Shown here piece by piece: positions 6,452 to 53,990 of a stretch of DNA of 64,000 nucleotides. The first letter of the stretch is position 1, and each line of letters opens with the position of its first letter. The position numbers were made by a program, and so were the translations under genes. Source of the DNA: Heterodontus francisci (lineage: Eukaryota). The notes below the pieces were generated by a model. That model was not told the DNA's origin. It did not search any database and saw only the letters and a program-made list of their open reading frames with translations. The stretch spans positions 70,949,666-71,013,665 of the forward strand of contig NC_090386.1 in the NCBI RefSeq assembly GCF_036365525.1. Reading direction: 5' to 3'.

Positions 6452-9400
6452 GCTGCCAGCAAAAGCAAGAGTGCGCAGGGGCCCCTTTAAATGGCATCAT
6501 CTAGCTGCTGCTGCTACTACTACCTTTGTTTTTGGAAGTGGGTACAAGAGAGTGCCTGGCATCCAGACCACAGGGTGCAAAGGAGATGCTTGGAAATTGA
6601 CCTCTGCTCCACGCTGGCGGGGAACATGGACTTTCCATTCAAATGAATATGGGTTAGCAAGTCTTGCTGCTTTTCTTTCTCATCAGTGCTGCCTCTTCTC
6701 CATAAGTTGGACGTGGATAACTGGCACAATGTTGAAGAGGAATGGATGTTGCTCCAGCTGCTCCCATCAGTTGGATATGTTTCTCCACCAAAGACGAAGT
6801 TTATAAGGCAGGAATATTATTTAAAGTTATCTGGATGCTACCTCCTTAATCTATCAATAATAGGAATGAGGAACACAGGTAGGACTTGGATCATTGCTGT
6901 TAAGTCATTGAGCACACTCAATGCAAAAGAGTAGCCAAATGGTCCATTCATTATTAAGGCTGGCACATGGATACAAACTGGCCAAGTCTCACTCATTGGA
7001 AAAGACAGTTTCTCATTATAATTTTAAAATGTAATACATTTTGATGGATGTCAATCTTGAAAGTTAACACAGTTTGGTTTCAGCTGCAATCTATCTCATC
7101 TTTTTGTGGTCATTAATCTCCGTTCTAATGTTTTTTCTCAATGTTCCCAGTGCTGGATACTGTCTTTTAATTGCCTGTAATTGAAAGGCATGGACAGTGA
7201 ATAGAAGCATGTTTTGTCCAAGCAGTGAGGTGAGATATTGCTGGTCTATTACACAAGGAAATAGAATGTGCATTCAAATTACTGACCAACAATTCATACT
7301 AGTTAAACTTGAACATTGATGTTGATTTTTTTTCCTTCCAGTTGTTAAATCACTGACAGACACAGGAATTCTGAGGAGCAGTAGTTGCTGAGGGATATTT
7401 CACTGAAATCAAATTTTCACAATTCCTTGACTGCTGCCCATTTCCTATTAATCTAAACATGTGTTGAAATAAAGTCCAGAAAATAGCAAGAGCACGACTT
7501 CTGCTCCCTTCAAAATACAAGCAATAGATGCATCTGTTCCATTGATGTTGCAGACATACAGACACAATTATTTGCCTGACAATAGCTGGAACATTTAAAT
7601 GGCAGCTACTAGAATATATCGCTCAATGAAATCAGAGGAGTGAATATAATTTGAAAGTGAATGAGTGGACCATTGGACAACAAGTTACTGAGACTGATTA
7701 TCTCATCCACATATGGCTACTTTGTTCTAGGATCTGTGCTTTCCAAATCTGAGTTTGGATACATTTCTACTGTCCATTTGTCAAATTGGAAACTTACACT
7801 AGACAGAGGTGAAATAGATTTTGTTCCTTTCCATGTGCATTATACTGTGCATCAGATGCCTTTCTTGCCTTTCAACAATTGTAGGGATAGATACTGAGGG
7901 ACAGATATTGGAAGGCAGATTATTACTACTTGTTGGTAATTGAAGAAATACTCATAAAACTGTCAACTTGATGTCAATAATGCATGGATAATAGTAACAG
8001 ATTTCTGTTCGATTCCAGAAGTTAGAAGAGAATACTTTGAACTGAAAAGTCAACCGAGTTAATTTTAATGGTACACTGATACTAAGACCCTGTCAATGGT
8101 TGGACCATAGAAATGATACAGTAGTTAAAAAGTGACTGTCAGAGATATACTCAATGGATTCCCATCAATGCATTTCGACAAAATAATGTTTTTTTTTATT
8201 TCAATCTTGTGAAAAGAAAGCAAAGCAATTGCACTGTATGTTTTTATTTAATTTAAAACATGTCATGAAGAAAGAAATTTTCCAAGATTCTTTACAAATT
8301 AGCTACTTTGTTCAAGTTGTTCACCCAGGAAACACTGAAAAATGTATATGTAGACAATCAGTTTTGAAAAATATAATGTCCATCTCTTGGAGCTCTTCAG
8401 TTGAATTATATTACCATTCTATGTCTGAATGGGCTTTAACTGTCAAGAAGTCAGACATGCAGCTTAAATATTTCTTTTTAAGTAATCCTGGTGCTGCTAA
8501 AAAGCTTATTTTATCCACAAATTGGAACAGGTAAAATAAATAGAAAAACTGTGCCTACCCACTGTTTCTGTTTTAAAAAATAAATAATGTTTGTGCTTGG
8601 AGTGCTTTGTGTTTTACAGTCAATTAACATCCTCTCTGTACTAACGCTTTGTCTTTCAACACACCGTTAACATACCGTTTGCCTTTGTTCCATGACCTTC
8701 ATTTGTGGCTATTTGTTGCCATATTTAGACTTTTCTGCTGCGATTTGTTACAATGTTCTAATTTAGTTGTGAGCACCTGGTATCATTTTCTGATTCTATG
8801 TCATGTCTACTTGGTACCATGTTTGAAATCTGTTGCTTTAGGTATTATATTCTCATTCTCTTGTGGGTATTTGGGGCAGAATACCAACTACACACAATAG
8901 AACCAGAATGGATATCAAATGCCTGCAAGAGAAAATGGGAGCTTGTACCAAATACCCACAGTCGAATTTGAACAGAATGCCAAATATCCATTACTGAATC
9001 CAAATATGGTATCAACCAGAAGCAATACCTTACCAAGAACCTACAACATAATTGGAGCCTAATGCCGCATTGAGCAGTTTTGGAATATGGTACTAAATAT
9101 CCCTAGCAATATTGGAATATAGTATTAAATACTCACAACATTATCAGAGTATGCTACTAAATACCCACAACAATTTAAGAATACAGTAATAAATAAGCAC
9201 AACAGTGTTGAAATATGGTATTGAATACTCACAACATGATTGGAATCTGGTATTAAATACAACAGAATCAGAATATGGTACTAAATACTCAACAGTATCA
9301 GAATATGGGTATTAACTTCCCAAAACAGAATTGGAATGTGGTAGTATCTACCCAGAACAGTATTGGAATATGGTACTAAATACTCACAACAGCATTGGAA

Positions 9401-10769
9401 TATGGTACAAAATACGGCAGTATCGGATTCTGTATTAAATACTCACGACAGTATTGGAATATGGTATTAAATACTCACAACAATATCGGAATATGGTATC
9501 AAGTACTCACAACAGTATCAGAATGATACTAAATTCCCACAACATGATTGGAATATGATATTAAATACCCACAACAGTATCAGTATATGGTATTAAATAC
9601 AACAGTATCGGAATATGGTATTAACTACCTAGAACAGATTCGGAATATGGTATTAACTACTCAGAACAGTATCGGAATGTGGTAGTATCTGCCCAGAACA
9701 GTATTGGAATATGGTACTAAATAACCCATGACAGTATTGGAATACGATAGTATCTACACAGAACAGTATTGGAATATGGTACTAAACACCCATGATAGAA
9801 TCGGAATATGGTTCTAAATACTCACAACAGCATCAAACTATGGTATTAAATACTCACGAGTATCAGAATATGGTATTAAATACCAAGAACAGTATTGGAA
9901 TATCATACTAAATACACACAACAGAATCGGAATGTGATGCTAAATACTCACAACAACATCGGAATGTGGTACTAAATACGCAACAGCATCAGAATATGGT
10001 ACTAAATACTCAGAACAGTATCGAAATATGGTACTAACTACCCACAATAGTATCGGAATATGGTACTAAATACTCAACAGTATCGGAATGTAGTATTAAC
10101 TACCCAGAAGAGACTCGGAATATGGTATTAACTACCCAAAACAGTATGAGAATGTGGCAGTATCTACCCAGAACAATATTGGAATATGGTACTAAATATG
10201 ACAGTATCGGAATATGTATTAAATACTCACAACAGTATTGGAATATAGTATTAAATACTCACAACAGTATCGGAGCATGATACTAAATGCCCACAACATG
10301 ATCAGAATATGGTACTAAATAGTCACAACAGTATCAGAGTACGATGCTAAACATAAAATACTAGTAGAATAAAGTACCATCTTCAACGGATTTGGAATAC
10401 GATACCATATATGCACATCAGAACCAAGAGATCACAACAGATACCCACAGCAGAATTGCAGCACAGGACAAAATAACCATAGCACATTAAGCTGTGGTAC
10501 TAAATACCCATATTAGAATGAAAGTATAATTCAAAATAACAGACTTGCTTTGTGCCAAATATATACTACAGAAACAGAAAATGATACCAATTGCCCACAA
10601 TAGAATTAGGGCATTGTAAAAGAATCATCACTAAAGAATCAAAATATGATAACAAATACCCACCACTGAATCAGAAAATTGTACCAAATAGCCACAACAG
10701 AATTAAAATACAGTATGAAATACACATGAATGAGAAAGTAATGCTAAATACTCACAACAGAATCAGAGA

Positions 10770-17899: not shown

Positions 17900-19186
17900 T
17901 ATTAGCGACAGTCAGCACGGTTTTGTGTCATTAGCGATAGTCAGCACGGTTTTGTGAAGGGTAGGTCGTGCCTCACAAACCTTATTGAGTTTTTCGAGAA
18001 GGTGACCAAACAGGTGGATGAGGGTAAAGCAGTGGATGTGGTGTATATGGATTTCAGTAAGGCGTTTGATAAGGTTCCCCACGGTAGGCTATTGCAGAAA
18101 ATATGGAAGTATGGGGTTGAAGGTGATTTAGAGCTTTGGATCAGAAATTGGCTAGCTGAAAGAAGACAGAGGGTGGTGGTTGATGGCAAATGTTCATCCT
18201 GGAGTTTAGTTACTAGTAGTGTACCGCAAGGATCTGTTTTGGGGCCACTGCTGTTTGTCATTTTTATAAATGACCTGGAAGAGGGTGTAGAAGGGTGGGT
18301 TAGTAAATTTGCGGATGACACGAAGGTCGGTGGAGTTGTGGATGGTGCCGAAGGATGTTGTAGGGTACATAGGGACACAGATAGGCTGCAGAACTGGGCT
18401 GAGAGATGGCAAATGGAGTTTAATGCGGAGAAGTGTGAGGTGATTCACTTTGGAAGGAGTAACAGGAATGCAGAGTACTGGGCTAATGGGAAGATTCTTG
18501 GTAGTGTAGATGAACAGAGAGATCTTGGTGTCCAGGTACATAAATCCCTGAAAGTTGCTACCCAGGTTAATAGGGCTGTTAAGAAGGCATATTTTGCGTT
18601 AGCTTTTATTAGTAGGGGGATCGAGTTTCGGAGCCACGGGGTCATGCTGCAGCTGTACAAAACTCTGGTGAGACCGCACCTGGTGTATTGCGTGCAGTTC
18701 TGGTCACTGCATTATAGGAAGGATGTGGAAGCTTTGGAAAGGGTGCAGAGGAGATTTACTAGGATGTTGCCTGGTATGGAGGGAAGGTCTTACGAGGAAA
18801 GGCTGAGGGACTTGAGGTTGTTTTCGTTGGAGAGAAGGAGGAGGAGAGGTGACTTAATAGAGACATATAAGGTAATCAGAGGATTAGATAGGGTGGATAG
18901 TGAGAGTCTTTTTCCTCGGATGGTGATGGCAAACACGAGGGGACATAGCTTTAAGTTGAGGGGTGATAGACATAGGACAGATGTTAGAGGTAGTTTCTTT
19001 ACTCAGAGAGTAGTAGGGGCGTGGAACGCCCTGCCTGCAACAGTAGTAGACTCGCCAACTTTAAGGGCATTTAAGTGGTCATTGGATAGACATATGGATG
19101 AAAATGGAATAGTGTAGGTCAGATGGTTTCACAGGTCGGCGCAACATCGAGGGCCGAAGGGCCTGTACTGCGCTGTAATGTTCTAA
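17900..19186 (+). mobile_element. 5'-truncated young CR1 LINE with an uninterrupted 387-aa RT/C-terminal ORF2 segment (17954-19117)
   Basis: [28 protein letters not shown] motifs; CR1 tail gggccgaagggcctgtactgcgctgtaatgttcta. Confidence 0.95.
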
Positions 19187-23145: not shown

Positions 23146-23446
23146 GGGACATGGGTTAGGGTTAGGGTTGTACTCAGTTGTATCTAACCACTACAAAGTC
23201 AAAGGGCTCAGGGGACATGGGTTCAAATCCCACCACAGCAGAAGGTGGAATTTGAATACAATTAATAAATCTGGAATTTAAAAAAGCTAGTCTAATGATG
23301 GCCATGAAACCATTGTCGATTGTTGTAAAAACCTATCTGGTTCACTAATGTCCTTTAGGGAAGGAAATCTGCTGTCCTTACCTGGTCTGGCCTACATGTG
23401 ACTCCAGACCCACAGCAATGTGGTTGACTCTTACATGCCCTCTGAA

Positions 23447-26310
23447 ATGGCCTAGCAAGCCACTCAGTTGTATCTAACCACTCCAAAGTCAATAAAAAGG
23501 AATGAAACGGGACGGACCACCCGGCATCGACCTAGGCACCGGAAACGACAGTGGCAAACCCAGCCCTGTCGACCCTGCAAAGTCCTCCTTACTAACATCT
23601 GGGGGCTTGTGCCAAAGTTGGGAGAGCTGTCCCACTGACTAGTCAAGCAACAGCCTGACATAGTCATACTCACGGAATCATACCTAACAGACAATGTTCC
23701 AAACTCTGCCATCATCATCCCCGGCTATGTCCTGTCCCACCGGCAGGACAGACCCAGCAGAAGTGGCAGCACAGTGTTATACAGTAGGGAGGGAGTTGCC
23801 CTGGGAGTCCTCAACATCGACTCTGGACCCCATGAAGTCTCATGGCATCAGGTCAAACATGGACAAGGAAACCTCCTGCTGATTACCACCTACCGCCCTC
23901 CCTCAGCTGATGAGTCAGTACTCCTCCATGTTGAACAGCACTTGGAGGAAGCACTGAGGGTGACAATGGTATAGAATGTACTCAGGGTGGGGGACTTCAA
24001 TATCCATCACCAAGAGTGGCTCAGTAACACCACGACTGGCCGAGTCCCAAAGGATATATCTGCTAGACTGGGTATGCGGCAGGTGGTGAGGGAACCAACA
24101 AGACGGGAAAACATACTTGACCTCATCCTCACCAATTTGCCTGCTGCAGATGCATCTGTCCATGACAGTATTGGTAGGAGTGACCACCGCACAGTCCTTG
24201 TGGAGACGAAGTCCTGCCTTCACATTGAGGACACCCTTCTTCGTGTTGTGTGGCACTACCACCGTGCTAAAATGGGATAGATTTCAAACACATCCAGCAA
24301 TGCAAAACTGGGCATCCATGAGGCGCTGTGGCCATCAGCAGCAGCAGAATTGTACTCAACCACAATATATAACCTCATGGCCCGGCATATCCCCCACTCT
24401 ACCATTATCATCAAGCCAGGAGACCAACCCTGGTTCAATGAAGAGTGCAGGAGGGCATGCCAGGAGCAGCACCAGGCATTCCTCAAAATGAGGTGTCAGC
24501 CTAGTGAAGCTACAACACAGGACTATCTGCGTGCCAAACGACGTAAGCAGCATGCGATAGACAGAGATAAGCGATCCCATAACCAATGGTTCAGATCTAA
24601 GCTCTGCAGTCCTGCCACATCCAGCCATGAATGGTGGTGGACAATTAAGCAACTAACCGGAGAAGGTGGCTCCACAAATATCCCCATCCTCAATGATGGG
24701 GGAGCCCAGCACATCGGTGCGAAAGATAAGGCTGAAGCATTTGCAACAATCTTCAGCCAGAAGTGGCAAGTTGATAATCCATCTCGGCCTCCTCCTGAAG
24801 TCCCCAGCATCACTGATGCCAGATTTTACCCAATTCGATTCACTCTGCGTGATATCAAGAAACGACTGAAGGCACTGGATACTGCAAAGGCTATGGGCCC
24901 TGACAACACCAGAACCTGCCGCGCCCCTAGCCAAGCTGTTCCAGTACAGCTACAACACTGGCATCTATCCTGCAATGTGGAAAATTGCCCAGATATGTCC
25001 TGTACACAAAAAGCAGGACAAGTCCAACCCGACCATTTACTGCCCCATCAGCTTACTCTCAATCGTCAGTAAAGTGATTTGCTTAGCAATAACCTGCTCA
25101 GTGACGCTCAGTTTGCAATCCGCCAGGGCCACTCTGCTCCTGACCTCATTACAGCCTTGGTTCAAACATGGACAAAAGAGCTGAACTCAAGAGGTGAGGT
25201 GAGAGTGACTGCCCTTGACATCAAGGCAGCATTTGACCGAGCATGGCATCAAGGAGCCCTAGCAAAACTGAGGTCAATAGGAATCAGGGGAAAAACCCTC
25301 CACTGGTTGAAGTCATACCGAGCGCAGAGGAAGATGGTTGCGGTTGTTGGAGGTCAATCATCTCAGCTCCAGAACATCACTGCAGGAGTTCCTCAGGGTA
25401 GTGTCCTAGGTCCAACCATCTTCAGCTGCTTCATCAGTGACCTTCCTTCAATCATAAGGTCAGAAGTGGGGATGTTCGCTGATGATTGCACAATGTTCAG
25501 CACCATTCGTGACTCCTCAGATACTGAAGCAGTCCGTGTAGAAATGCAGCAAGACTTGGACAATATCCAGGCTTGGGCTGATAAGTGGCAAGTAACATTT
25601 GCGCCACACAAGTGCCAGGCAATGACCGTCTCCAACAAGAGAGTATCTAACCATCTCCCCTTGACATTCAATGGCATTACCATCGCTGAATCCCCCACTA
25701 TCAACATCCTAGGGGCTACCATTGACCAGAACTGAACTGGAGTAGCCATATAAATACCGTGGCTACAAGAGCAGGTCAGAGGCTAGGAATCCTGCCGCGA
25801 GTAAGTCTCCTCCTGACTCTCCAAAGCCTGTCCACCATCTACAAGGCACAAGTCAGGAGTGTGATGGAATACTCTCCACTTGCCTGGATGGGTGCAGCTC
25901 CAACAACACTCAAGAAGCTCGACACCATCCAGGACAAAACAGCCCGCTTGATTGGCACCCCATATACACACATTCACTCCCTCCACCTCCGACGCACAGT
26001 GGCAGCAGTGTGTACCATATACAAGATGCACTGCAGCAATGCCCCAAGGCTCCTTAGACAGCACCTTTCAAACCCGCGATCTCTACCAACTAGAAGGACA
26101 AGGGCAGCAAATACATGGGAATACCACCACCTGCAAGTTCCCCTCCAAGTCACACACCATCCTGACTTGGAACTTTATCACCGTTTCTTCACTGTCGCTG
26201 GGTCAAAATCCTGGAACTCCCTTCCTAACAGTACTGTGGGTGTACCTACCCCAAATGGACTGCAGCAGTTCAAGAAGGCAGCTCATCACCACCTTCTCAA
26301 GGGCAATTAG
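23447..26310 (+). pseudogene. APE endonuclease-reverse transcriptase ORF of the tRNA-headed LINE (stops and frameshifts)
   Basis: ORF-track pieces 23774, 23987, 24350, 25079 and 25759 tile into one ~950-codon ORF ending HLLKGN*. Confidence 0.85.
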
Positions 26311-27025
26311 GGATGGGCATAAATGCTGGCCTGGCCAGCGACACCCACGTCCCATAAATGAATAAAAAAAAATATTACCAGCAGATTTCCTCTGGCATTG
26401 CTCACAGTAAATCAGAAGCATGGTGCAGAACAAGCAAGACAAGAACATTGAGATTGGGACCAAATGTGACACAGACATGAAGCATACACTAGACACAAGA
26501 CCTTTAACATATTACAGATAGATGTTAAAAAGTCAGATATGAAAGAACCTGGAGAAGAAAAAATGGCTGGATCTGTAAAAATGGCAGATATGTAAAAATG
26601 ACAGTTTCCAAAAAAACTACTCAGAAGGCAAGATGTGGCATAAGTTTCGAAGTAAAAAGCACCAACTCCAGAGATTTTCCCTCCTTTGGAAATTTTCATT
26701 CTCCCAATAAATATCTTGAGTGTTTTCTCAAGAATTCAAGCTTTCTTAGCATTTAAGCAACTTTATCAAAGTGAGTAGAAACATATTCCTTAAATTGGGG
26801 TTCCCAAACTGTGGCACATGTAGCCCTGGCAGTCTCTCAGGGGTACATGGAGGAAATTGTCCAATGACGGATCCTTTTGCATGCCCCTCCACTGCGTTCA
26901 CTCTCACACGCCTCTTTGTTTTCTCCCATTTCACTGTAAATTGTTACGATTTGCATTCAATTAGGAGCTGCAGGCTTTCAGTCACTGGCATTGACGGCAC
27001 TATGGGCAGTTAAATAAAAGGGTCT

Positions 27026-33789: not shown

Positions 33790-36700
33790 GGGTGGGTATG
33801 TCCTGTCCCAATAGCACAACAGACCCACCAGAGGTGGTGGTACAGTTGTATATAACTCTCCCTAGTGGAGAGGTCAATTACCAGGGGGCACAGATTTAAA
33901 GTGTTTGGTGGAAGGATTAGAAGGGACATGAGGAAAAAGGTTTTCACCCAGAGGGTGGTAGGTGTCTGGAATTCACTGCCCGGATCGATGCTGGAGGCAG
34001 AAACCCTCAACTCTTTTAAAAGGTACCTGGACATGCACTTGAAGTTCTGTAACCTGCAAGGCTACAACCAGGTGCTGGAAGGTGGGATTAGATTGGGCGG
34101 CTAGCTTTTGCAGCCGGCACAGACACGATGGGCTGAATGGCCTCCTTTTGTGCCGTAACATTTCTATGGTTCTATACAGTTGGGAGGGAGTGGCTCTGGG
34201 CATCCTCAACATTGATTCCAGACCCCATGAAGTCTCATGGCATCAGGTCTAACATGGCCAAGGAAATCTCCTGCTGATTACTACCTACTGCCCTCCCTCA
34301 GCTAATGAATCAGTGCTACTCCATGTTGAACACCACTTGGAAGAAGCAATGAGGGTAGCAAGGGCATGGAATCTTTTCTGAATGGGGACTTCAATGCCCA
34401 TCATCAAGAATGGCTGAGTCGCACCACTACTGACCAAGCTGTCTGAGTCCTAAAGGACATATCTGCCAGACTGTGCTGGCAGCAGGTGGTGAGGAAACCA
34501 ACAAGATGGAAAAACCTATTTGACCTCACCCTCACCAATCCAGCTGTTCCAGATGCATTTGTCCATGACAGTATTGTTAGGAGTGACCATTGCACAGTCC
34601 TTATGGAGACTAGCCCCCGCCCCGCCACCCCCCCCCCCCACCATCGTGTTGTGGGACACTACCGCCATGCTAAAGGTGATAGATTCAGAATAGATCTAGC
34701 AGCTCAAAACTGGGCATTCATGAGGCGCTGTGGGCCATCAACAGCAGCAGAATTGTATTCAACCACAATCTATAACCTCATGGCCCGGCATATACTTCAT
34801 TCCACCATTAACATCAAACCAGGGAATCAAACCTGGTTCAATAAGGAGTGCAGGAGCGCATGCTAGGAGCAACATCAAGCATACGTAAAAATGAGATGCC
34901 AACCAGGTGAAGCTACAACATAGGACCACTTGCATGCTAAACAGCAGAAGCACATGCGATCTCCAGCAATTAGCAATCCCAAAACCAATGAATCCGATCA
35001 AAGCTTGGTAGTCCTGCCACATCCATTCGTGAATGGTGATGGACAATTAAACAATGAACCGGAGGAGGATGCTCCACAAACATCCCCATCCTGAATGATG
35101 AGGGAGCCCAGCATGTCAATGCAAAAGACAAGGCTGAAGCATTTGCAGCCATCTGCAGCCAGCAGTGCCGAGCAGATGACAGTCTTCAGGTAATCCATTT
35201 CACTCCATATGATATCAAGAAATGGCTGACGACACTGGATACAGCAAAGTCTGTGGGCTCTGACAACATCCCAGCTGTAGAACTGAAGACTTGTGCTCCA
35301 GAACTAGCCATGTCCCAAACCAAGTTGTTCCAGTACAGCTACAATACTGGCACCTACCCGACAATGTGGAAAATTACCCAGGTATTTCTCGTCTACAAAA
35401 AGCAGAACAAATCCAATCCAGCCAATATCAACCATTCAGTCTACTCTGCATCATCAGCAAAGTGATGGAAGATGTCATCGACAGTGCTATCAAGTGGCAC
35501 TTAACCAGCAATAACCTGCTCACCTACGCTCAGTCTGGGTTCCACCAGGGCCATTGCACTCCAGACCTTATTACAGCCTTTGTCCAAACATGGTCAAAAG
35601 TGCTGAATTCAAAAGATGAGGTGAGAATGACTGCCCTTGACATCAAGGCAGCATTTGACTGAGTATGGCATCAAGGAGCCCTAGCAAAATTCAACTTAAT
35701 GGGAATCAGGAAAATACCTCTCTGCTGGTTGGAGTCATACCTAGCACAAAGGAATGTGGTTGTGGATGTTGGAAGCCAGTCATCTATGCCCCAGGACATC
35801 ACTACAGGAGTTCATCAAGATAGTGTCCTAGGCCCAACCATCTTCAGCTGCTTCATCAATGACCTTCCCTCCAACCCATAAGGTCAGAGGTGGGGATGTT
35901 TGCTGATGATTGCACCATGCTCAGTACCGTTCGAGACTCCTCAGATACTGAAGCAGTCTGTGCCCACATGCAACAAGACCTGGACAACATTCAGGCTTGG
36001 GCTGCTAAGTGGCAAGTAACAATCATGCCACACAAGTGCCAGGCAATGACCGTCCCCAACAGGAGAGAATCTAACCACCTTCCCTTGACAATCAACAGCA
36101 TTACCACTGCTGAATCCTCCACCGTTAACATCCTGTTGATTACAATTGATCAGAAACTTAATTGAACCAAACATATAACTACTGTGACTACAAGAGCAGA
36201 TCAGAGGCTGGGAATTCTGCAGCGAGTAACTCACCTCCTGACTCGCCAAAGCCTGTCCACATTTACAAGGCACAAGTCAGGAGTGTGATGGAATACTCTC
36301 CACTTGCCTGGATGAGTGTAGCTCCAACAACACTCAAGAAGCTCGGCATCATCCAGCACAAAGCAGCCCACTTGATTGACACCCCATCCATCACTTTAAA
36401 CATTCACTCCCTCCACAGCGGCGCACAATGGCAGCACAATGCACTATCTATAAGATGCACTGCAGCAACTTGCTAAGGCTCCTTCGAGAGCACCTTCCAA
36501 ACCCATGACCTTTTACCACCTAAAAGGACAAGAGCAGCAGACACCTGGGAACACCATCAACTGCAAGATCCCCTCCAAGTGACACACCATTCTGACTTGG
36601 AAATATATCACCATTCCTTCACTGTCGCTGGGTCAAAAACCTGGAGCTCCCTTCCTAACAGCACTGTGGGTGTACCTACACCACATGGACTGCAGTGGGT

Positions 36701-36800
36701 CAAGAAGACTGCTCACTACCACCTTCTCAAGGGCAATTAGGGATGGGCAATAAATGCTGGCCTTACAAGTGACACTCCCATTCCAAGAATGAAAAAAATC
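33790..36800 (+). mobile_element. Older 5'-truncated copy of the tRNA-headed LINE family
   Basis: Colinear with ~23725-26370; same APE/RT motifs and tail. Confidence 0.9.
33855..34172 (+). mobile_element. CR1 3' fragment nested in the LINE above
   Basis: RGHRFKVFGG...FTQRVVGVWNSLP; tata duplication at the junctions. Confidence 0.85.
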
Positions 36801-37229: not shown

Positions 37230-38447
37230 CAACTTCCTTGCTGTCAGCCTTCACCACAGTAAGAAAGTAGCTTATCGCTCCTCTGAGGAGTAGCAATAGG
37301 ATCAGCCACACCAACAGCAGCAGCAACAACAACAAGGGCAACAGCAGCACCAGGAGCAACAACACCAGCAGCAGCTGCCTTCTCCACAGCTACATGCTGC
37401 TCCATGGGACAGAGGGGATGGGCATGGAGCTCCAGCTCAAAGGAGACGATACCTCCAGCACAGCGTCTACAGACAGAGGGAGAGCTTCCTCAACATGACA
37501 GAGCAACAGTGTCTCAGGGGGATCAGGCTTTGACGGCAGGCCATGACTGACATCTGTAGCCTCCTGGAACAAGACCTCTTTCCAAGTGGACCGGGTGCCC
37601 ACCTATTGCCACTGGCCATCATGGTCATCACAGCCCTGAATTTCTTTGCCTCCAGATTCTTCTAGAGATCAGCTGGAGACATCTCCGGGATCTTACAATC
37701 TGCTGCCCATAAATTCATCAAACAGGTCACCAATGCCTTGTTTTCCAAGGCCGCCAATTATATCAACTTCGCCATGGATGAGGCCAGTCAAATCCAGAGG
37801 GCTGTCGGCTTCACTGCAGAGGCTGGATTCCCACAGGTGCAGGGAGTCATTGATTCTATGCATGTGGCAATCAAGGCATCATCAGATCAGCCAGCAGTCT
37901 TCATCAACTTGAAGGGCTTCCACTCCCTCAATGTCCAGTTAGTTTGTGACAACCGAAAGGTTACCATGCATGTCTGCACTAGATATCCAGGGAGCTACCA
38001 TAACTCATTTATTCTGTGGCAATCACATCTCCCGCAAGTTTTCATTCCTCCACACAGCCTCAGCAACAGGCTCCTGGGAGACGAGGGTCAGCCTCTGAAG
38101 ATCTCGCTGCTGACTCCTATGACGAACCCGATCAGTGAACCAGCGGAGAGATACAGCAGGAGCTACATGACCACAAAGGTGATAATTGGCTTGCTGAGGA
38201 TGCAGTTCAGGTGCTTGGACAGATCTGGAGGAGCCCTTCAGTATGCCTCATCAAGGGTCTCCAGGATTGTTCTGGTCCGCTGTGCTCTTCACAACATCAC
38301 GCTGTAGAGAGGAGGGGAGCTGCAGAAAGAGGAAAGTGCAGAACTTCAGAGGAGGAGGAGGAACCAGATGTAGCCATGGTGCCTGCAGCCACACACCTGG
38401 CTGCCGGAGAAGCCCGTGATGGATTCATCCAGGCCTGCTTTATTTAA
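37230..38447 (+). pseudogene. Harbinger DDE transposase (HARBI1-like) with N-terminal poly-Q; disrupted
   Basis: GFPQVQGVIDSMHV, KGFHSLNVQLVCD, YPGS, LLGDEG, FRCLDRSGGALQY, CALHN motifs; in-frame stops. Confidence 0.88.
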
Positions 38448-44559: not shown

Positions 44560-46670
44560 CCTAATGATCTTACATGTACCACAAAAAACAATGCTTTGTT
44601 CTGGATATATACATAATTTTGACTTGGGCAAACAGAATGCAATATTGAAATTGGCTGATGACACAAGTTTGGTTTGGCAAACAGTGACGAGGACTGTAAA
44701 AAAACTTCAGAAACACATTGACAGGTTAGGAAAATTAGCACACAGGATGTTGATGCAATTTAATGCAAAATGTGAGGTCCTTAATTTTGAGAAGAAAATC
44801 AAGGAAGGTGAGTATACACTCAATGTCCTAGATGCTAACGGATGTAGATAAACAGAGAGACCTTGAGGTTCATGTACATAATTCTCAAAGTGGAGGTGTA
44901 GGTGGATACAGCCATAAAAAGGAACTTTTGGTCTTATAAGTAGGGGCATAGAGTCCAAGGGCAAATGGCTAATGAGATTTCAACAAAGCAATTGTGCAGA
45001 AACAATGAGAGTTGTATTTATAGTTTTGGGGCTCTCCATTATCGAAAGGGGATTAAAGCCACAGAGTGCATGAAGCATTGATTTACCAGGATGATAAGAG
45101 GGTGAGAAATTATTGTTATGAGGAGAGACTTGAGCTACTTGGATTATTTCCCCCGGAACAGAGGTGGCTCAAAATTAATGAAGGGTTTTCATACAGTGAA
45201 TCTGTAAAATTGTTTGCTTTTGTTGGGAAGACAGTGATGAAAGGTGATGCAATTTTAAATGGTCACTAAGAGAAGGGTAGGCGGTGGCGTAGTGGTATTA
45301 TCATTGGACTAGTAACCCAGAGACCCAGGGTATTTCTCTGGGGACATGGGTTTGAATCCCACCACAGCAGAAGGTGGAATTTGAAGTTAATTAATAAATC
45401 TAGAATTAAAAGCTAGTCTAATGATGGCCATGAAACCATTGTCGATTGTTGTAAAAACCCATCTGATTCATTAATGTCCTTTAGGGAAGGAAATCTGCTG
45501 TCCTTACCTGGTCTGGCCTACATGTGACTCCAGACCCACAGCAATGTGGTTAACTCTTATACGTTGACGTAACCACTACGAAGTCAATAAAAAGGAATGA
45601 AACTGGACGGACCACCCGGCATCGACCTAGGCACCGGAAAGGACAACGGCAAACCCAGCCCTGTCGACCCTGCAAAGTCCTCCTTACGAACATCTGGGGG
45701 CTTGTGCCAAAGTTGGGAGAGCTGTCCCACAGACTAGTCAAGCAACAGCCTGACATAGTCATACTCACGGAATCATACCTTACAGACAATGTCCCAGACA
45801 CTACCATCACCATCCCCGGGTACGTCCTGACCCACCGGCAGGACAGACCCACCAGAGATGGTGGCACAGTGGTATACAGTAGGGAGGGAGTTGCCCTGGG
45901 AGTCCTCAACATCGACACCGGACTTGCCTGGATGGGTGCAGCTCCAACAACACTCAAGAAGCTCGACACCATCCAGGACAAAGCAGCCCGCTTGATTGGC
46001 ACCCCATCTACAAACATTCACTCCCTCCACCACCGACGCACAGTGGCAGCAGTGTGTACCATCTACAAGATGCACTGCAGCATTGCACCAAGGCTCCTTA
46101 GACAGCACCTTTCAAACCCGCGACCTCTACCAACTAGAAGGACAAGAGCAGCAAATACATGGGAACACCACCACCTGCAAGTCCCCCTCCAAGTCACACA
46201 CCATCCTGACTTGGAACTATATCGCCGTTCCTTCACTGTCGCTGGGTAAAAATCCTGGAACTCCCTTCCTAACAGCACTGTGGGTATACCTACCCCAAAT
46301 GGACTGCAGCGGTTCTAGAAGGCAGCTCACCACCACCTTCTCAAGGGCGATTAGGGATGGGCAATAAATGCTGGCCTGGCCAGCGTCGCCCACATCCCAT
46401 GAATGAATTTTTTAAAAAAGGGGAGAGATGTTAAGCGAAATAGCTTTATACAGATGGTCATTGAGTATAGAATGCTTTTCTACCCAAGATTGGTGAGGTG
46501 GGGACCATTGCACCTTTTAAGGGAAAAGTGAGTGAACATTTGAAGTAGAGCTTTGGGAGCGCACAGGGTGGTCGAATTAGTTTTGGATTGTTCTAACAAA
46601 GAACTGAGAGAGACACAATGTCCAAGTAGCCTCCTTTTGGGCAGTAAACTTTTTTGTTCTATGGAAATGA
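44560..46670 (+). mobile_element. Old CR1 LINE split by the 45275-46419 insertion
   Basis: KLADDT...QFNAKCEV, YEERLELLGLF; 3' part resumes at ~46420. Confidence 0.7.
45275..46419 (+). mobile_element. Internally deleted tRNA-headed LINE (head + EN start fused in frame to C-terminus + tail)
   Basis: A box 45285, B box 45349; 181-aa ORF GVLNIDTG|LAWMGAAP skips ~2 kb; intact tail. Confidence 0.9.
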
Positions 46671-47319: not shown

Positions 47320-48166
47320 CTTAGTGTAGTATTCTGGGCCCAACCATCTTCAGTTGCTTCATCAATGACCTTCCCTTCATCGTAACGTCAGAAGTGGGGA
47401 TGTTCGCTGATGATCGCACAATATTCACTACCATTTGTGGCTTCTCAGATACTGAAGCAGTCCATGTAAACATGCAGCAAGACCTATCAACATTCAGGCT
47501 TGAGCTGATAAGTGGCAAGTAACATTCGCGCCCCTAGCCAAGCTGTTCCAGTACAGGTATAACACTGGCATCTACCCGGCAATGTGGAAAATTGCCCAGC
47601 TATGTCCTGTCCACAAAAAGCAGGACAAATCCAATCTGGCCAATTACCACCCTATCATTATACTCTCGAACATCATCACCGTGATGGAAGGGGTCAGCGA
47701 CAGTGCTATCAAGTGGCACTTGCTCAGCAATAACCTGCTCACTGACGCTTAGTTTGGGTTCTGCCAAGCTACCCAGCTCCAGACCTTATTACAATCTTGG
47801 TCCAAACATGGACAAAAGAGCAGAATTCCATCAAGGCAGCATATGACTGAATATGGCATCAAGGAGCCCGAGCAAAACTGGAGTCAATAGAAATCAGAGG
47901 GAAAACTCTCCACTGGTTGGAGTCATACCTCGCACAAAGGAAGATGGTTGTTGGAGGTCAATCATCTCAGTCCCAGGACATCATTGCAGGAGTTCCTCAG
48001 GGTAGTATCCAAGGCCCAACCATCTTCAGCTGCTTCATCAATGACCTTCCCTCCATCATAAGGTCAGAGTGGAGATGTTCGCTAATGATTGCACAATGTT
48101 CAGCACCATTTGCCGCACCTCAGACATTGAAGCAGCGTATGTCCATATGCAGCAGGACCTGGACAA
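47320..48166 (+). mobile_element. Rearranged RT fragment of the tRNA-headed LINE family (continues at 53270)
   Basis: GPTIFSCFINDLP..FADD appears twice; internal back-jump at ~47527. Confidence 0.85.
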
Positions 48167-49725
48167 CATAGAACCATAGAATGTTTATGGCACAGAAAGA
48201 GGCCACTTGGCCTATGGTGTCTGTGCTGGCCGAAAAACGATCCACCCAGTCTAATCCCAACTTCCAGCATTTGATCTGCAGCCCTGCAGATTACAGCACT
48301 TGAGGTGCATAACCAGACTCCTTTTGAATGAGTTGAGGGTTTCTGCCTCAACTACCGTTTCAGGCAATGTGTTACAGACCCCTACCACTCTGGGAAAAAA
48401 CGTTTTTCCTCATCTCCCCTCTGATCTTTCTGCCAATCACTTTAAATTTATGCCCCCTAGTCACTGACCTCTCTGCTAAGGTAAAGAGGCCCTTCACATC
48501 CACTCTATCCAGACCCCTCACAATTTTGTACATTTCAATCAGATCTCCCCTCAGCCTTCTCTGTTCCAAGGAGAACAACTCCAGCCTATCCAACCTTTCC
48601 TCATACCTGCATTTTTCCAGTCCTGGCAACATCCTCGTAAATCTCCTCTGTACCCTCTCTAGTGCAATTATATCCTTTCTGTAATGAGAACTGCACACAG
48701 TACTCAAGTTGTGGCCTAACTAATGATTTATATAGTTCCAGCATAACCTCCCTGCTGTTATATTCTATACCTCGGCTAATAAAGAATGTCTTCATTGCAG
48801 GCATCTATATGCATTCTTAACCACCTTATCGACCTGTCCTGCTACCTTCAGGGATCTGTGGACATTCACTCCAAGGTCCCTCACTTCCTCTACACCTCTC
48901 AGTATTCTCCCATTAATTGTGTATTCCTTTGCCTTACTTGACCTCCCCAAATGCATCACCTCACACTTCTCTGGTTTGAATTCCATTGCCACCTTTCTGC
49001 CCATCTGACCAGACCATCAATATCTTCTTGCAGCCTATAGCTATCCTCCTCGCTATCTACCACAAGGCCAATCTTTGTGTCGTCTGCAAACTTTTTGATC
49101 ATGGCCCCTACATTTACATCCAAATCGTTGATATATACCACAAAAAGCAGGGGACCCAGTACTGAGCCCTGTGGAACGCCACTGGAAACAGCCCTCCAGT
49201 CACAAAAACACCCGTCAACAATTACCCTTTGATTCCTGCCACTACAATTGATTCCTACAATTTTGTATCGACCTTACTACCTTTCCCTGGATCCCATGAA
49301 CTTTTATTTTTTTAACCAGTCTGCCATGTGGGACCTTGTCAAAAGCCTTGCTAAAATCCATGCAGACCACATCAACTGCACTACCCTCATCTATCTTCCT
49401 TGTTACTTCTTCAAAAAATTCGATCAAGTTGGTCAGACAAGATCTTCCCTTAACAAATCCATGCTGACTCTGCTTGATTAATCTGCGCCTTTCTCAGTGA
49501 CAGTTTATCCTGTCTCTCAGAATTGATTCCAGTACTTTGCCCACGACTGAAGTTAGACTGACTGGCCTGTAACTATTTGGTCTGTTCCTCACTTCCTTTT
49601 TAAACGAAGGTACAACATTAGCACTCCTCTTATCCTCCGGCACCACACCTGTATCCAATGAGGACTGGAAAATGATGTTCAGACCTTCTGCTATTTCCTC
49701 TCTTGCTTCTTTTAACAGCCTGGGT

Positions 49726-50606: not shown

Positions 50607-50999
50607 GGGGAGCTGGTGGCGTAGTGGTAATGTCACTAGACTAGTAACCGAGAGACCCAGGCTAATGCTCTGGGGATATGGATTTGAATCCCACCATGGC
50701 AGATGATGAAATTTGAATTCAATTAATAAATCTGGAATTAAAAAGTTAGGCTAATGGTGACCATGAAAAAATTGTTGATTGTTGTAAAAACCCATCTGGT
50801 TTACTAATGTCCTTTAGGAAATCTGCCATCCTTATCTGGTCTGGCCTACACATGATTTCAGACCCACAGCAACATGATTGACTCTTAAAAATGTCCTCTG
50901 AGGGCCTAGCATGACACTCAGTTCAAGGGCAATTAGGGGTGGGCAATAAATGCTGGCCTTGCCAGCAACACCCACATCCCATGAATGAATTTTTAAAAA
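50607..50999 (+). mobile_element. tRNA-derived SINE made of the head/5'UTR and 3' tail of the tRNA-headed LINE
   Basis: A box, degenerate B box, junction cactcagtt|caagggcaattaggg at ~50923, hairpin tail; degenerate ~9-bp TSD. Confidence 0.88.
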
Positions 51000-53269
51000 G
51001 TCGCAGTTTCCCGTCCACTCCTCAGCTTATTAAAATTGGCCTTGCCCCAATTGAGAACTCTAATTCCTGTTCTATCTCTGTCCTTTTCCATAATTATGTT
51101 AAAACTGACTGAATTATGATCACTACCACCAAAATGCTCTCCCACTGCCACTCCTTCCACCTGCCCATCTTCATTTCCTAAAACTAAGTTTAAAACTGCA
51201 CCCTCTCTGGTTGCACTTGCTACATACTGGCCAAAAATGTTCTCCTGAATGCATGTCAAGAATTCTGCTCCCTCAATTCCTTTCACACTAAAACTATGGC
51301 AGTTAATATTGGGGTAGTTAAAATCCCCTATTATTATTGCCCTACTTTTCTTGCACTTTTCAGAGATTTGCCTATATATCTGCTCTTCTATCTCCCTCTG
51401 ACTGTTTGGGGGTGCATACTACATTCCCGGCAGTGTGATTGCCCCTTTTTGTTCCTTATCTCAATCCATATGGCGTCATTTGATGAACTTTCCAACACAT
51501 CATTCCTCCTTACAGCTGTAAATGTTTCTTTGACCAAAATTGATACTTCCCCTCCTTTCTTATCCCCGTCCCTAATGTGTCTGAAAACCCTGCAACCAGG
51601 AACGTGAGCTGCCATTCCTGTCCCTCCTTAAGCTATGTTTCTTTAAAGCTATGCTATCAGACTGCCACATGTCTATCTGTGCCCTCAGCTCACCTGCTTT
51701 ATTTGCTCTACTCCTTGCATTGAAATAGATACCTTTGACCACTGCCAAACTCTTTTTTTAAATTATCTAACTTTTGTTTCCTCTGTCTTCCAGACTCATC
51801 CATTAGTTTTCTGCTTTCCATTTTCATTTCTGATTTTGTCCCACCCTCAGGTCCCCATCCCCCTGTCAAACTAGTTTAAACCCTCCCCAACAGCACTAGC
51901 AAAACATCCCGCAAGGAACTCAGTACCGGCTCTGATCAGATGCAGCCCTTCCGGCCTGTACAGGTCCCATCTCCTCCAGAGCCGGTCCCAATGTCCCAAG
52001 AATCTAAAGCCCTCCCTCCTGCACCAACTTTCCAGCCACCCATTCATCTGTCTTATCCTTCTATTCCTGTACTCACTTGCGCATGGCACTGGGAGTAATC
52101 TGGAGATTACTACTTTTGAGGTCCTGCTTGCTATTTTCTTACCTAGCTCCCTAAATTCTGACTGCAGGACCACATTCCTCTTTCTACCTATGTCGCTGGT
52201 TCCGATTTGGACCACGGCTGCTGGCTGTTCGCCTTCTCCCTTCAGGATGTTCTGCAGCTGCTCAGGGACATCCTTGACCCTGGTACCAGGGAGGCAACGC
52301 ACCACCCTGGATTCACGTCGACAGTCGCAAAAACACCTGTCCGTTCCCTTGACTGTCGAATCACCTATCACTATGGCTCTTCCCGTCTTCCCTCTACCCC
52401 TCTGTGCAGCTGAGCCACCTATGGTGCCATGGACTTGGCTCTGGCTGCACTCCCCAGATGAGCCATCACTCTCATCAGTATTCAGAACTGAATACCTGTT
52501 GGAGAGTGAGATGCACTCAACGGTCTCTGCACTACCTGCCTGTTTCTTTTTGACTGCCTGGTGGTCACCCATTCCCTCTCTCCCTGCATACTCTTAAGCT
52601 GCAGGGTGACCACATCTATAAACGTGCTAGCCACGAAGCTCTCAGCCTCATGAATGCACCACAGTGTCGCCAACTGCTGCTCAATTTCCAAAGCCTGGAG
52701 CTCAAGCTGCTGCAATTGATGACACTTCCTGCATAAATGGTTATCCAGGATATGGGAAGCATCCTGGAGCTCCCAAATTGCGCAAGAGGTGCACTCTCCA
52801 GGATGACGCAACCCTGCCATTCCTTTATTTATTAGTTGACCCTTCGCTACTGCTAAAGAAATAAATGTTACCAATACGAGAACTATTAATAAAAGCTTAC
52901 GAGTACTGATAAATCCTATAATCAATCAATACAGTTCCCTAGTTAAAATAAACCTTACTTAAAAAAAGATCATACTCACCTGCTATTTACTTGTTCCTTA
53001 TTATTAATACTTCATTTTTTTCCCGTTTTTAGTCTGCCAGTTGTTGAGAGGCAGTATCTAAGCTGCACTACTGAGCAGCCAATCACCTACCTGCTTCCTT
53101 GTGATGTCACGCCTCTCTTTTCTCTTTCTGAATGCAGACTCCGACTGGTTACAGGTGACAGCGAATCCCACTGGTCTCACTGATTCATACTGCTCTGACT
53201 ATATCTCGCCTTCCTTCTCCTCGCTTTTTTTAGCCCCACTGGTCTCGCTGATTTGTGCTGCTCTGTCTG

Positions 53270-53990
53270 ACATCCAGGCTTGGGCTGATAAGTGGCAAGT
53301 AACATTCACGCCTCAAAAGTGCCAGGCAATGACCATCTCAAACAAGAGAGAATCTAACCATCTCCCCTTGACATTCAATGGCATTACTATTGCTGAATCC
53401 CCCACTATCAACATCCTGGGGGTTACCATTGACCAGAAACTGAACTGGACCAACTACATAAATACTGTAGCTACAAGAGCAGGTCAGAGGCTGGGAATTC
53501 TGCAGCGAAAAACTCACCTCCTGTCTCTCCAAAGCCTGTCCACCATCTACAAGGCACACATCAGGAGTATGATGGAATACTCCCACTTGCCTGGATGGGT
53601 GCAGTTCCAACAACGCTCAAGAAGCTTGGCACCATCCAGGACAAAGCAGCTCACTTGATCGGCAGCCCATCCACCACCTTCAACATTCACTCCCTCCACC
53701 ACCAACACACAGTGGCAGCAGTGTGTACCATATACAAGATGCACTGCAGCAGCTCACCAAGACTCCTCTGACATCACCTTCCAAACCCATGACCTCTACC
53801 ATCTAGAAGAACAAGGGCAGCAGATATATCGTACACCAGCACCTGCAAGTTTCCCTCCAAGTCACACACCATCCTCATTTAGAACTAAATCGCTGTTCCT
53901 TTGTTCCTTCACTGTCACTGGGTCAAAAACCTGGAATTCACTCCCTTACAGCACTGTGGGTGTACCACATGGACTGTAGTGCTTCAAGAG
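53270..53990 (+). mobile_element. Continuation of the 47320 LINE copy (RT C-terminal region)
   Basis: DIQAWADKWQVTF...; rejoins ggacaac|atccaggct across the CR1 insertion. Confidence 0.9.

Follow-up and report, generated by a model that had tools for sequence, protein, structure and literature searches.

A tRNA-headed LINE of Heterodontus francisci avoids T-runs on its coding strand and may be a protein-coding retrotransposon of RNA polymerase III

Architecture of the element

The window, a 64,000-nt stretch of the Heterodontus francisci genome (contig NC_090386.1, forward strand, positions 70,949,666 to 71,013,665), contains at 23206-26340 a long interspersed nuclear element (LINE) with a tRNA-derived head, for which a first-pass annotation had proposed that the sense strand avoids runs of four or more T (T4), the stop signal of RNA polymerase (Pol) III. 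This stretch is a decayed, 5'-clipped copy of an abundant 3.3-kb LINE with a single open reading frame (ORF) for an apurinic/apyrimidinic endonuclease (APE) and a reverse transcriptase (RT), and both its ends are shared with a short interspersed nuclear element (SINE) of the same genome. The parts of the window copy are:

23206..23469, + strand, 5'-clipped remnant of the tRNA-derived head plus the SINE-shared body; the same segment lies in the SINE at 50667-50923
23220..23230, + strand, B-box-like motif, read from the sequence
23435..23455, + strand, six-codon upstream ORF (ATG...TAG), in frame and immediately 5' of the long frame
23456..26310, + strand, single APE and RT reading frame, broken in this copy
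23492-23494, + strand, codon 13 of the long frame
24824..24827, + strand, sole T4 run of the window copy and private to it
26293..26372, + strand, 3' tail in common with the SINE: predicted stem-loop, TGAA repeats and a short A tract

The first ~60 nt of the head, A box included, are missing from this copy. In family copies the T-arm matches the transfer-messenger RNA (tmRNA) model with E 0.003-0.007, below the gathering score, and the fold z of the tail stem-loop is -1.3 in the window copy and -2.1 in copy L048. The 5' junction of the window copy (23147-23205) is rearranged, with a short B-box-region repeat and two TTAGGG-like units, and includes at 23172-23202 a 31-nt duplicate of 23462-23492.

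Rough first-look counts in the 6-Gb genome gave 4,288 candidates for the 5' end of the family and 21,374 for its middle. Whole-length alignment (~3.2-3.3 kb) was obtained for 20 of 39 copies retrieved by the 5' end, and the full-length copies have a common start point and a purine-rich leader, with A and B boxes spaced as in a tRNA; the same pair of boxes was detected in 14 of 20 family loci chosen by protein. When 40 copies were chosen with ORF-only queries (20 of 39 plus 20 of 49 other-copy matches), 35 extended into the SINE-shared 5' part and 25 came within 11 nt of the common start, with no alternative 5' end in common among the remaining five. As these copies were picked without reference to the head, the tRNA-derived head belongs to the element and is not a chance neighbour. 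Compared with the Thr and Lys tRNA genes of the genome, the head scored 50-56 against four tRNA-Thr variants, higher than any of 300 shuffles (shuffle maxima 42-48); neither ARAGORN nor the Rfam tRNA model called the head a tRNA. The family head, as in L297, resembles the 5' half of a tRNA with a degenerate T-arm; a second T-arm, which is intact and bears the B box, comes after it.

The family-majority frame runs over 975 codons from stop to stop and encodes APE and RT. RVT_1 was detected in the window copy (E 1.7e-28) and Exo_endo_phos in the copy at 45275 (E 5.5e-4, below the cut-off), and homologues carry PF00078 together with PF14529/PF03372. The single ORF with APE endonuclease and RT, and the 5'-truncated copies that share one 3' end with a stem-loop and a tail of short repeats, are those of an APE-type LINE (CR1/L2 group). 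In an RT tree (FastTree, 43 rows, one short row left out) the family grouped with marine-invertebrate-type proteins at 46-51% RT identity, apart from two CR1 families of the host, A and B, at 31-35%, which places it outside the CR1 clade proper (HER1-like). The nearest proteins to the family protein are 39-42% identical and unnamed.

The SINE consists of the first ~320 nt of the LINE joined to its last ~70 nt; seven such joints occur among the retrieved loci, and the joint recurs in three of four sequencing runs checked. This SINE is probably SacSINE1-like, with a putative Deu-type body. Contigs from three organisms (runs X10, X12 and X15) span the junction of body and ORF. A shared word of at least 6 nt flanks 12 of 48 copies, as compared with ~3 by shuffling, so that target-site duplications are present at some copies and not in general. 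The SINE and further members of the family in the window are:

34173..36798, + strand, older family copy, 83% to the majority, two T4 runs
45275..46411, + strand, second copy with complete head, internally deleted (1.1 kb, most of the ORF gone), T6A6 end
45285-45295, + strand, A box of the 45275 copy
45349-45359, + strand, B box of the 45275 copy
47320..48169, + strand, rearranged RT-region fragments of the family, T4-free
50607..50990, + strand, SINE: 5' part of the LINE (head and body) fused to its final ~70 nt
53272..53989, + strand, 3' fragment of the family, T4-free

A headless sister of the family was sought in the genome by three routes. Divergent flank matches turned out to be old copies of the tRNA-headed LINE itself, the best 20 loci for a foreign-protein query all belonged to the same family, and a query with L054 mostly matched an unrelated insertion. 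The latter is a young element of ~320 nt that sits within the 5' part of the old copy L054 (G000:C1:51089859-51090180) and matches many loci at up to 98% identity. A search of viral contigs found no relative.

Avoidance of T-runs on the coding strand

The counts on which the T4 proposal had been built were reproduced: 23206-26340 has one run of at least four T (24824-24827) and 14 runs of at least four A, where about a dozen had been reported, and the copy at 45275, described as T4-free up to its tail, has none in 45275-46410 before its T6A6 end, over 1.1 kb from which the ORF is mostly deleted. The contrast with A4 is partly one of base composition (A 28.6%, T 21.2% in the window copy) and was dropped as a test, as A4 stands at expectation (14 vs 14.9). 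For the window copy, one T4 compares with 5.0 expected from mononucleotide shuffling (P=0.033) and with 2.4 from a first-order Markov model (P=0.33). At the site of its single T4, 126 of 144 copies covering position 24824 read CTTC. The majority of 21 near-full copies has no T4, 8 T3 and 14 A4, and 43 of 50 near-full young copies are without T4. In the family-majority ORF, the absence of T4 compares with 4.5 by mononucleotide shuffling (P=0.01).

A plain codon shuffle (TTT 0 vs 11.1) overstates the effect, because CpG decay inflates T-ending codons before G, and it was replaced by a stratified, CpG-aware shuffle that keeps protein, codon usage and CpG decay fixed. Under this null, T4 or TVTTT (V = A, C or G) occurs 0 times vs 3.0 (P=0.025), and at codon junctions TTT is found 0 times vs 6.6 (P=0.0006) and TT 6 times vs 17.8 (P=0.0002), while AA, CC and TA are normal (junction TA 55 vs 52.0). 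There is no shortage of pyrimidine tracts (8 vs 4.6). The first-pass annotation had suggested looking at junction bias and at the choice of Phe codons; the junction bias is present, and TTT is used 4 times and TTC 14 times in the family majority; TTA is unused. At synonymous C/T sites not followed by G, T was chosen in 83 of 251 cases where this leaves a run of one, 28 of 122 for a run of two, 1 of 32 for a run of three and 0 of 2 for four or more; for runs of three or more this is 1 of 34 (Fisher P=5e-5). The A/G mirror of this test is flat (61/130, 44/99, 22/53 and 8/20). The depletion does not depend on the use of a majority, being seen in the uninterrupted copy L301 alone (TTT 1 vs 7.1, P=0.002).

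The coding strand therefore avoids runs of three or more T, a strong and specific signal that is larger at TTT and TT than at T4. The first-pass interpretation is supported in part: the depletion is T-specific, sense-strand-specific and graded by run length, but T4 by itself lies inside the shuffled null (P=0.08-0.32), an outcome that the first-pass annotation had named as refuting it.

Two headless CR1 families of the same genome served as controls, each as the majority of 25 loci and with a partial ORF (2.1 kb in one, 2.6 kb in the other); one of them is represented in the window:

17906..19117, + strand, CR1-type RT ORF (family A, control), seven runs of T4 or longer

The seven or so T4 runs ascribed to the ORF at 17954-19117 were recovered exactly, and the two CR1 majorities have 9 and 13 T4 runs, at or above expectation, with no step in run length. 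The contrast with CR1 holds in that these headless families are without the pattern, and it had been inflated by the greater share of T in CR1 (0.255 vs 0.197). The many 98% identical copies of family A, with an open 895-codon majority frame, mark it as very young.

For a second set of controls, 151 loci were taken from metagenome and genome-bin contigs; 26 were short or contained N and were dropped, which left 125 related ORFs. All 125 have T4; their TT and TTT ratios have a minimum of 0.64 and a median of 0.99, as compared with 0 (TTT) and 0.34 (TT) for the family. The A/B-box pair was found at none of their loci, many of which may be cut at the 5' end of the contig. The pattern is thus absent from both CR1 families and from the 125 ORFs, with the reservation that the relative L346 has just one T4. 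Its available DNA contains no A/B-box pair, its 5' end probably being cut off; it has 15 T3 runs, vs 4 in the family ORF, and T5 and T6 runs before its A tail. Seventy-one LINE-like loci (L345-L415) come from bacterial genome records, mostly metagenome bins, and are probably mis-binned eukaryotic DNA.

Age, masters and selection

With increasing divergence of the copies, T4 per kb climbs from 0.08 to 0.50 and A4 stays at 4.1-4.5, as fits neutral decay of T4-free masters. The majority of older copies (29 pieces, <86% identity) already has the head and no T4. Non-CpG differences between the older and the young majority fall at third, first and second codon positions in the proportion 78:24:12, with 66 synonymous vs 33 replacement changes, and in the youngest set, likewise without T4, 27 of 38 ORF-region changes are at third positions. 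Between the old and the young majority 18 TT sites were gained and 15 lost, and no T4 was created. The protein is under purifying selection, and its function was kept together with the T-run gap through several masters of one lineage. In the head of the youngest set TATTC is oftener seen than TATTT (9 vs 6). A T4 shared at family position 1140 (19 of 204 pieces) was considered as well; it is a product of CpG decay that also creates a stop codon and is uninformative on termination.

Translation start

In the majority frame no Met occurs until 284 codons in, beyond the APE domain, and young copies are mostly without an in-frame AUG. Of 76 young copies (at least 91% identity), 59 end the upstream six-codon ORF with TAG and 72 carry ATA as codon 13; in 16 a sense codon (GAG/GAA in 9) takes the place of the upstream stop, so that the frame becomes open from an AUG. 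An autonomous subfamily carrying GAG was considered and rejected, the GAG/GAA copies being scattered over both subfamilies and forming no single group. AUG at codon 13 was found in only 4 of 20 old copies, which are too decayed for a call. At the position of the upstream ATG of young LINE copies, CTG is the usual reading in the SINE and in old copies. In homologues such as P0008 and P0012 a Met precedes a comparable basic leader. The odd translation start fits an uncapped RNA and is no proof of one.

Possible transcription by Pol III

In mammalian cells, T4 leads to 65-75% termination, TCTTT, TATTT and TGTTT to 50, 42 and 20%, and T3 to little, T4 and TVTTT being the shortest terminators in the mammalian tests described (PMC8466645, PMC5725217). 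A 3.3-kb Pol III transcript with the T4 density of CR1 (4-5 per kb) would almost never be completed. For full-length transcription Pol III would need a non-template strand free of such stops, and the ORF majority of the family has neither T4 nor TVTTT. The young, youngest and old majorities are all without T4; on TVTTT there are two exceptions, a TATTT in the head of one subfamily and one TVTTT in the oldest majority. Flanks of the Thr and Lys tRNA genes of the genome have no T4 within 60 nt in 9 of 15 distinct cases. In 8 of these 9 flanks, tandem tRNA-Thr(TGT) and tRNA-Lys(TTT) genes (L315-L344) are directly followed by TGTTT, TATTT or TCTTT. Such short stops would explain an avoidance at the level of TTT.

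Judged from these features, the chances are about even that a full-length coding RNA, both translated and copied, is made by Pol III. Pol III would start at the tRNA-derived head, and T4 and TVTTT-type stops would have been selected out of successive masters, as they would cut the 3.3-kb transcript; transcription would stop at whichever T-run comes first after the tail. Being uncapped, this RNA might be translated from the near-cognate ATA, by restart after the six-codon upstream ORF or by read-through of its TAG, so that the full-length RNA could serve as message and template. The protein would then bind the 3' stem-loop and copy both the LINE RNA and the SINE with the same ends. On the broader proposition our opinion is just as evenly divided: the family may be a natural, autonomous, protein-coding Pol III retrotransposon with a 3.3-kb uncapped message, a codon choice shaped by Pol III stops and non-AUG translation, and SINE and LINE may be two lengths of one Pol III element.

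Further features of the transcript ends were considered. A T-run terminator before the A tail seemed present at 12 of 50 ends at first; background T+A tracts, however, have at least four T in 55 of 120 cases. Over all, 16 of 79 3' ends have at least four T and 46 of 79 have one T, and tail T-runs show no clear trend with age (8/48, 8/18, 0/12). A terminator at the 3' tail is not supported, as tail T-runs are no commoner than in background T+A tracts. Growth of tail T-runs after insertion has been described (PMC8466645). The T-then-A tracts of 9-13 nt at loci of the genome, often with at least four T (55/120), suggest that A-tracts become T/A palindromes. An extra G derived from a cap at the 5' junction was uninformative, because the element itself starts with G (position -1 is G in 12 of 48 copies and A in 30). 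Rfam found no ribozyme in five family loci.

Several observations weigh against transcription by Pol III. The family-majority T4 count of 0 compares with only 2.1 under the codon shuffle (P=0.08) and with 1.0 under the CpG-aware shuffle (P=0.32); TT, below any known Pol III stop, is depleted already, and given just six junction TT the absence of TTT among them is borderline (P=0.056). The avoidance of TTT is stronger than mammalian data predict, T3 hardly terminating in human cells, and the tandem tRNA genes with short stops could be inactive. The SINE-shared 5' part has four TTT in 320 nt, one large subfamily has TATTT in its head, and a single TVTTT lies in the ORF of the older majority (<86% bin). 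All majorities represent one lineage and are not independent trials, and the A and B boxes are not clearly better conserved between old and young than their surroundings (1/18 vs 10/53 changes). No control ORF is more than 36% identical to the family protein, compared with 39-42% for the nearest proteins, and most are T-richer; the headless controls from a vertebrate are the two host CR1 families, of another clade, and the composition-matched relative L346 (T 0.20) has one T4 in 2.86 kb with TT and TTT ratios of 0.64. Finally, an uncapped RNA would call for an unconventional mode of translation.

A minor but real possibility is that Pol II makes the RNA, the head being a captured leader or a Pol II promoter, and that U-runs are avoided for another reason at the RNA level, for example because of proteins that bind U-rich RNA, of splice acceptors or of a nuclease. 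This would accommodate a depletion that begins at TT (6 vs 17.8), the tolerance of T3 in the SINE-shared part and the weak TT depletion in some relatives (ratios 0.64-0.8), and a capped RNA needs no special translation mechanism. The normal count of junction TA argues against a nuclease that cuts at UU and UA, the specificity of RNase L, and the undiminished pyrimidine tracts against a general avoidance of splice acceptors; the two CR1 families of the same genome are unaffected, the step at run length three is steep, and upstream of its tail the element contains four AATAAA/ATTAAA signals, three of them in the first 350 nt.

Also unlikely, and a little more so, is a division of labour in which Pol III makes a T-run-free RNA for reverse transcription, the element behaving as a 3.3-kb SINE, and some copies, through a host promoter or read-through, give a separate, capped Pol II transcript that supplies the protein. 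Head, fixed start and T-run gap would be accounted for without cap-independent translation, and most young copies indeed have no in-frame AUG, with 16 of 76 carrying a sense codon at the upstream stop. Copying in trans, however, would let the ORF decay, yet synonymous changes outnumber replacements 66 to 33 and third positions take 27 of 38 changes in the youngest set; the GAG copies, moreover, are spread over both subfamilies.

It is highly improbable that a T-poor, C-rich founder with few Phe codons had few T-runs by chance and passed them on, for although T4 is within the CpG-aware null, T makes up just 0.197 of the ORF, Phe stands at 18.5 per 1000 vs a median of 32 in 103 homologues and L346 has one T4, the avoidance persists with protein, codon usage and CpG decay fixed (P=0.0002-0.0006 and 5e-5), none of the 125 relatives comes near the family ratios (0 and 0.34 vs a minimum of 0.64), and TT turned over between masters (18 gained, 15 lost) without any T4. 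Low Phe is also seen in the related proteins P0020, P0036 and P0064 (15.6-19.6 per 1000), one of which is named from Branchiostoma.

Relation to known elements

If Pol III does transcribe the coding element, a long-successful LINE would break the accepted rule by which Pol III makes only short non-coding RNAs and LINEs and SINEs are divided into coding Pol II and non-coding Pol III elements. It would also mean that terminator avoidance can shape a reading frame, and would hint at a natural way to translate an uncapped RNA, with the conserved SINE body as a candidate signal. Some natural copies, L301 among them, have an unbroken frame. A Pol III-made coding LINE was not found described in the full-text literature, a search that left Repbase, Dfam and most subscription papers outside, so that a prior database entry is possible. 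Among non-LTR elements, R2 and L1Tc provide a precedent for uncapped coding RNA, which is cut by a ribozyme and, in the case of R2, translated. Unlike the element here, they use Pol I or Pol II plus an HDV-like ribozyme.

The element has a SINE-like front and an L2-type LINE behind, the L2 link being suggested by a tail relation described in PMC5499810. There, as far as the account of these elements goes, the SacSINE1-type Deu-SINEs of cartilaginous fishes are paired with the LINE L2-2_CM, with homology described at the tail only, and a CR1-4_DR-like tail is given for a SacSINE1-type SINE in PMC3747384. As in that pair, a SINE with tRNA head, body and LINE tail stands here beside a LINE with the same tail; unlike L2-2_CM as described (PMC5499810), the LINE here also carries the SINE head and body before its ORF.

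A SINE resembling a LINE that has lost its middle and kept its two ends is likewise the outcome of the bipartite-LINE origin of SINEs (PMC5786205). In that model, as set out in the sections concerned, 5' parts come from RTE and Vingi alone, Pol II makes the LINE and the tRNA head is added later (PMC5786205), whereas here the head sits on the coding element itself. For conserved SINE bodies such as Deu, the same sections give no LINE match and leave the source of the body open (PMC5786205); the family offers a testable origin or function for Deu-type bodies.

With T+ SINEs such as B2 the element has in common a Pol III head, an AATAAA ~40 nt before the end, an A tail and, at 16 of 79 ends, a T-run before the A tail. 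T+ SINEs differ in being short and non-coding and, in the portions of PMC8466645 and PMC12358842 that treat them, are reported only in mammals; in the family, T-runs at the tail do not exceed the frequency seen in background T+A tracts.

Other features of the window

Elsewhere in the window, a fragment of a DDE_Tnp_4 (Harbinger-type) transposase lies at 37666-38307, and 51871-52593 on the - strand holds a GDSL-esterase ORF1 of a CR1-type element. A tandem array with a 32-nt unit in ~40 copies occupies 9075-10335.

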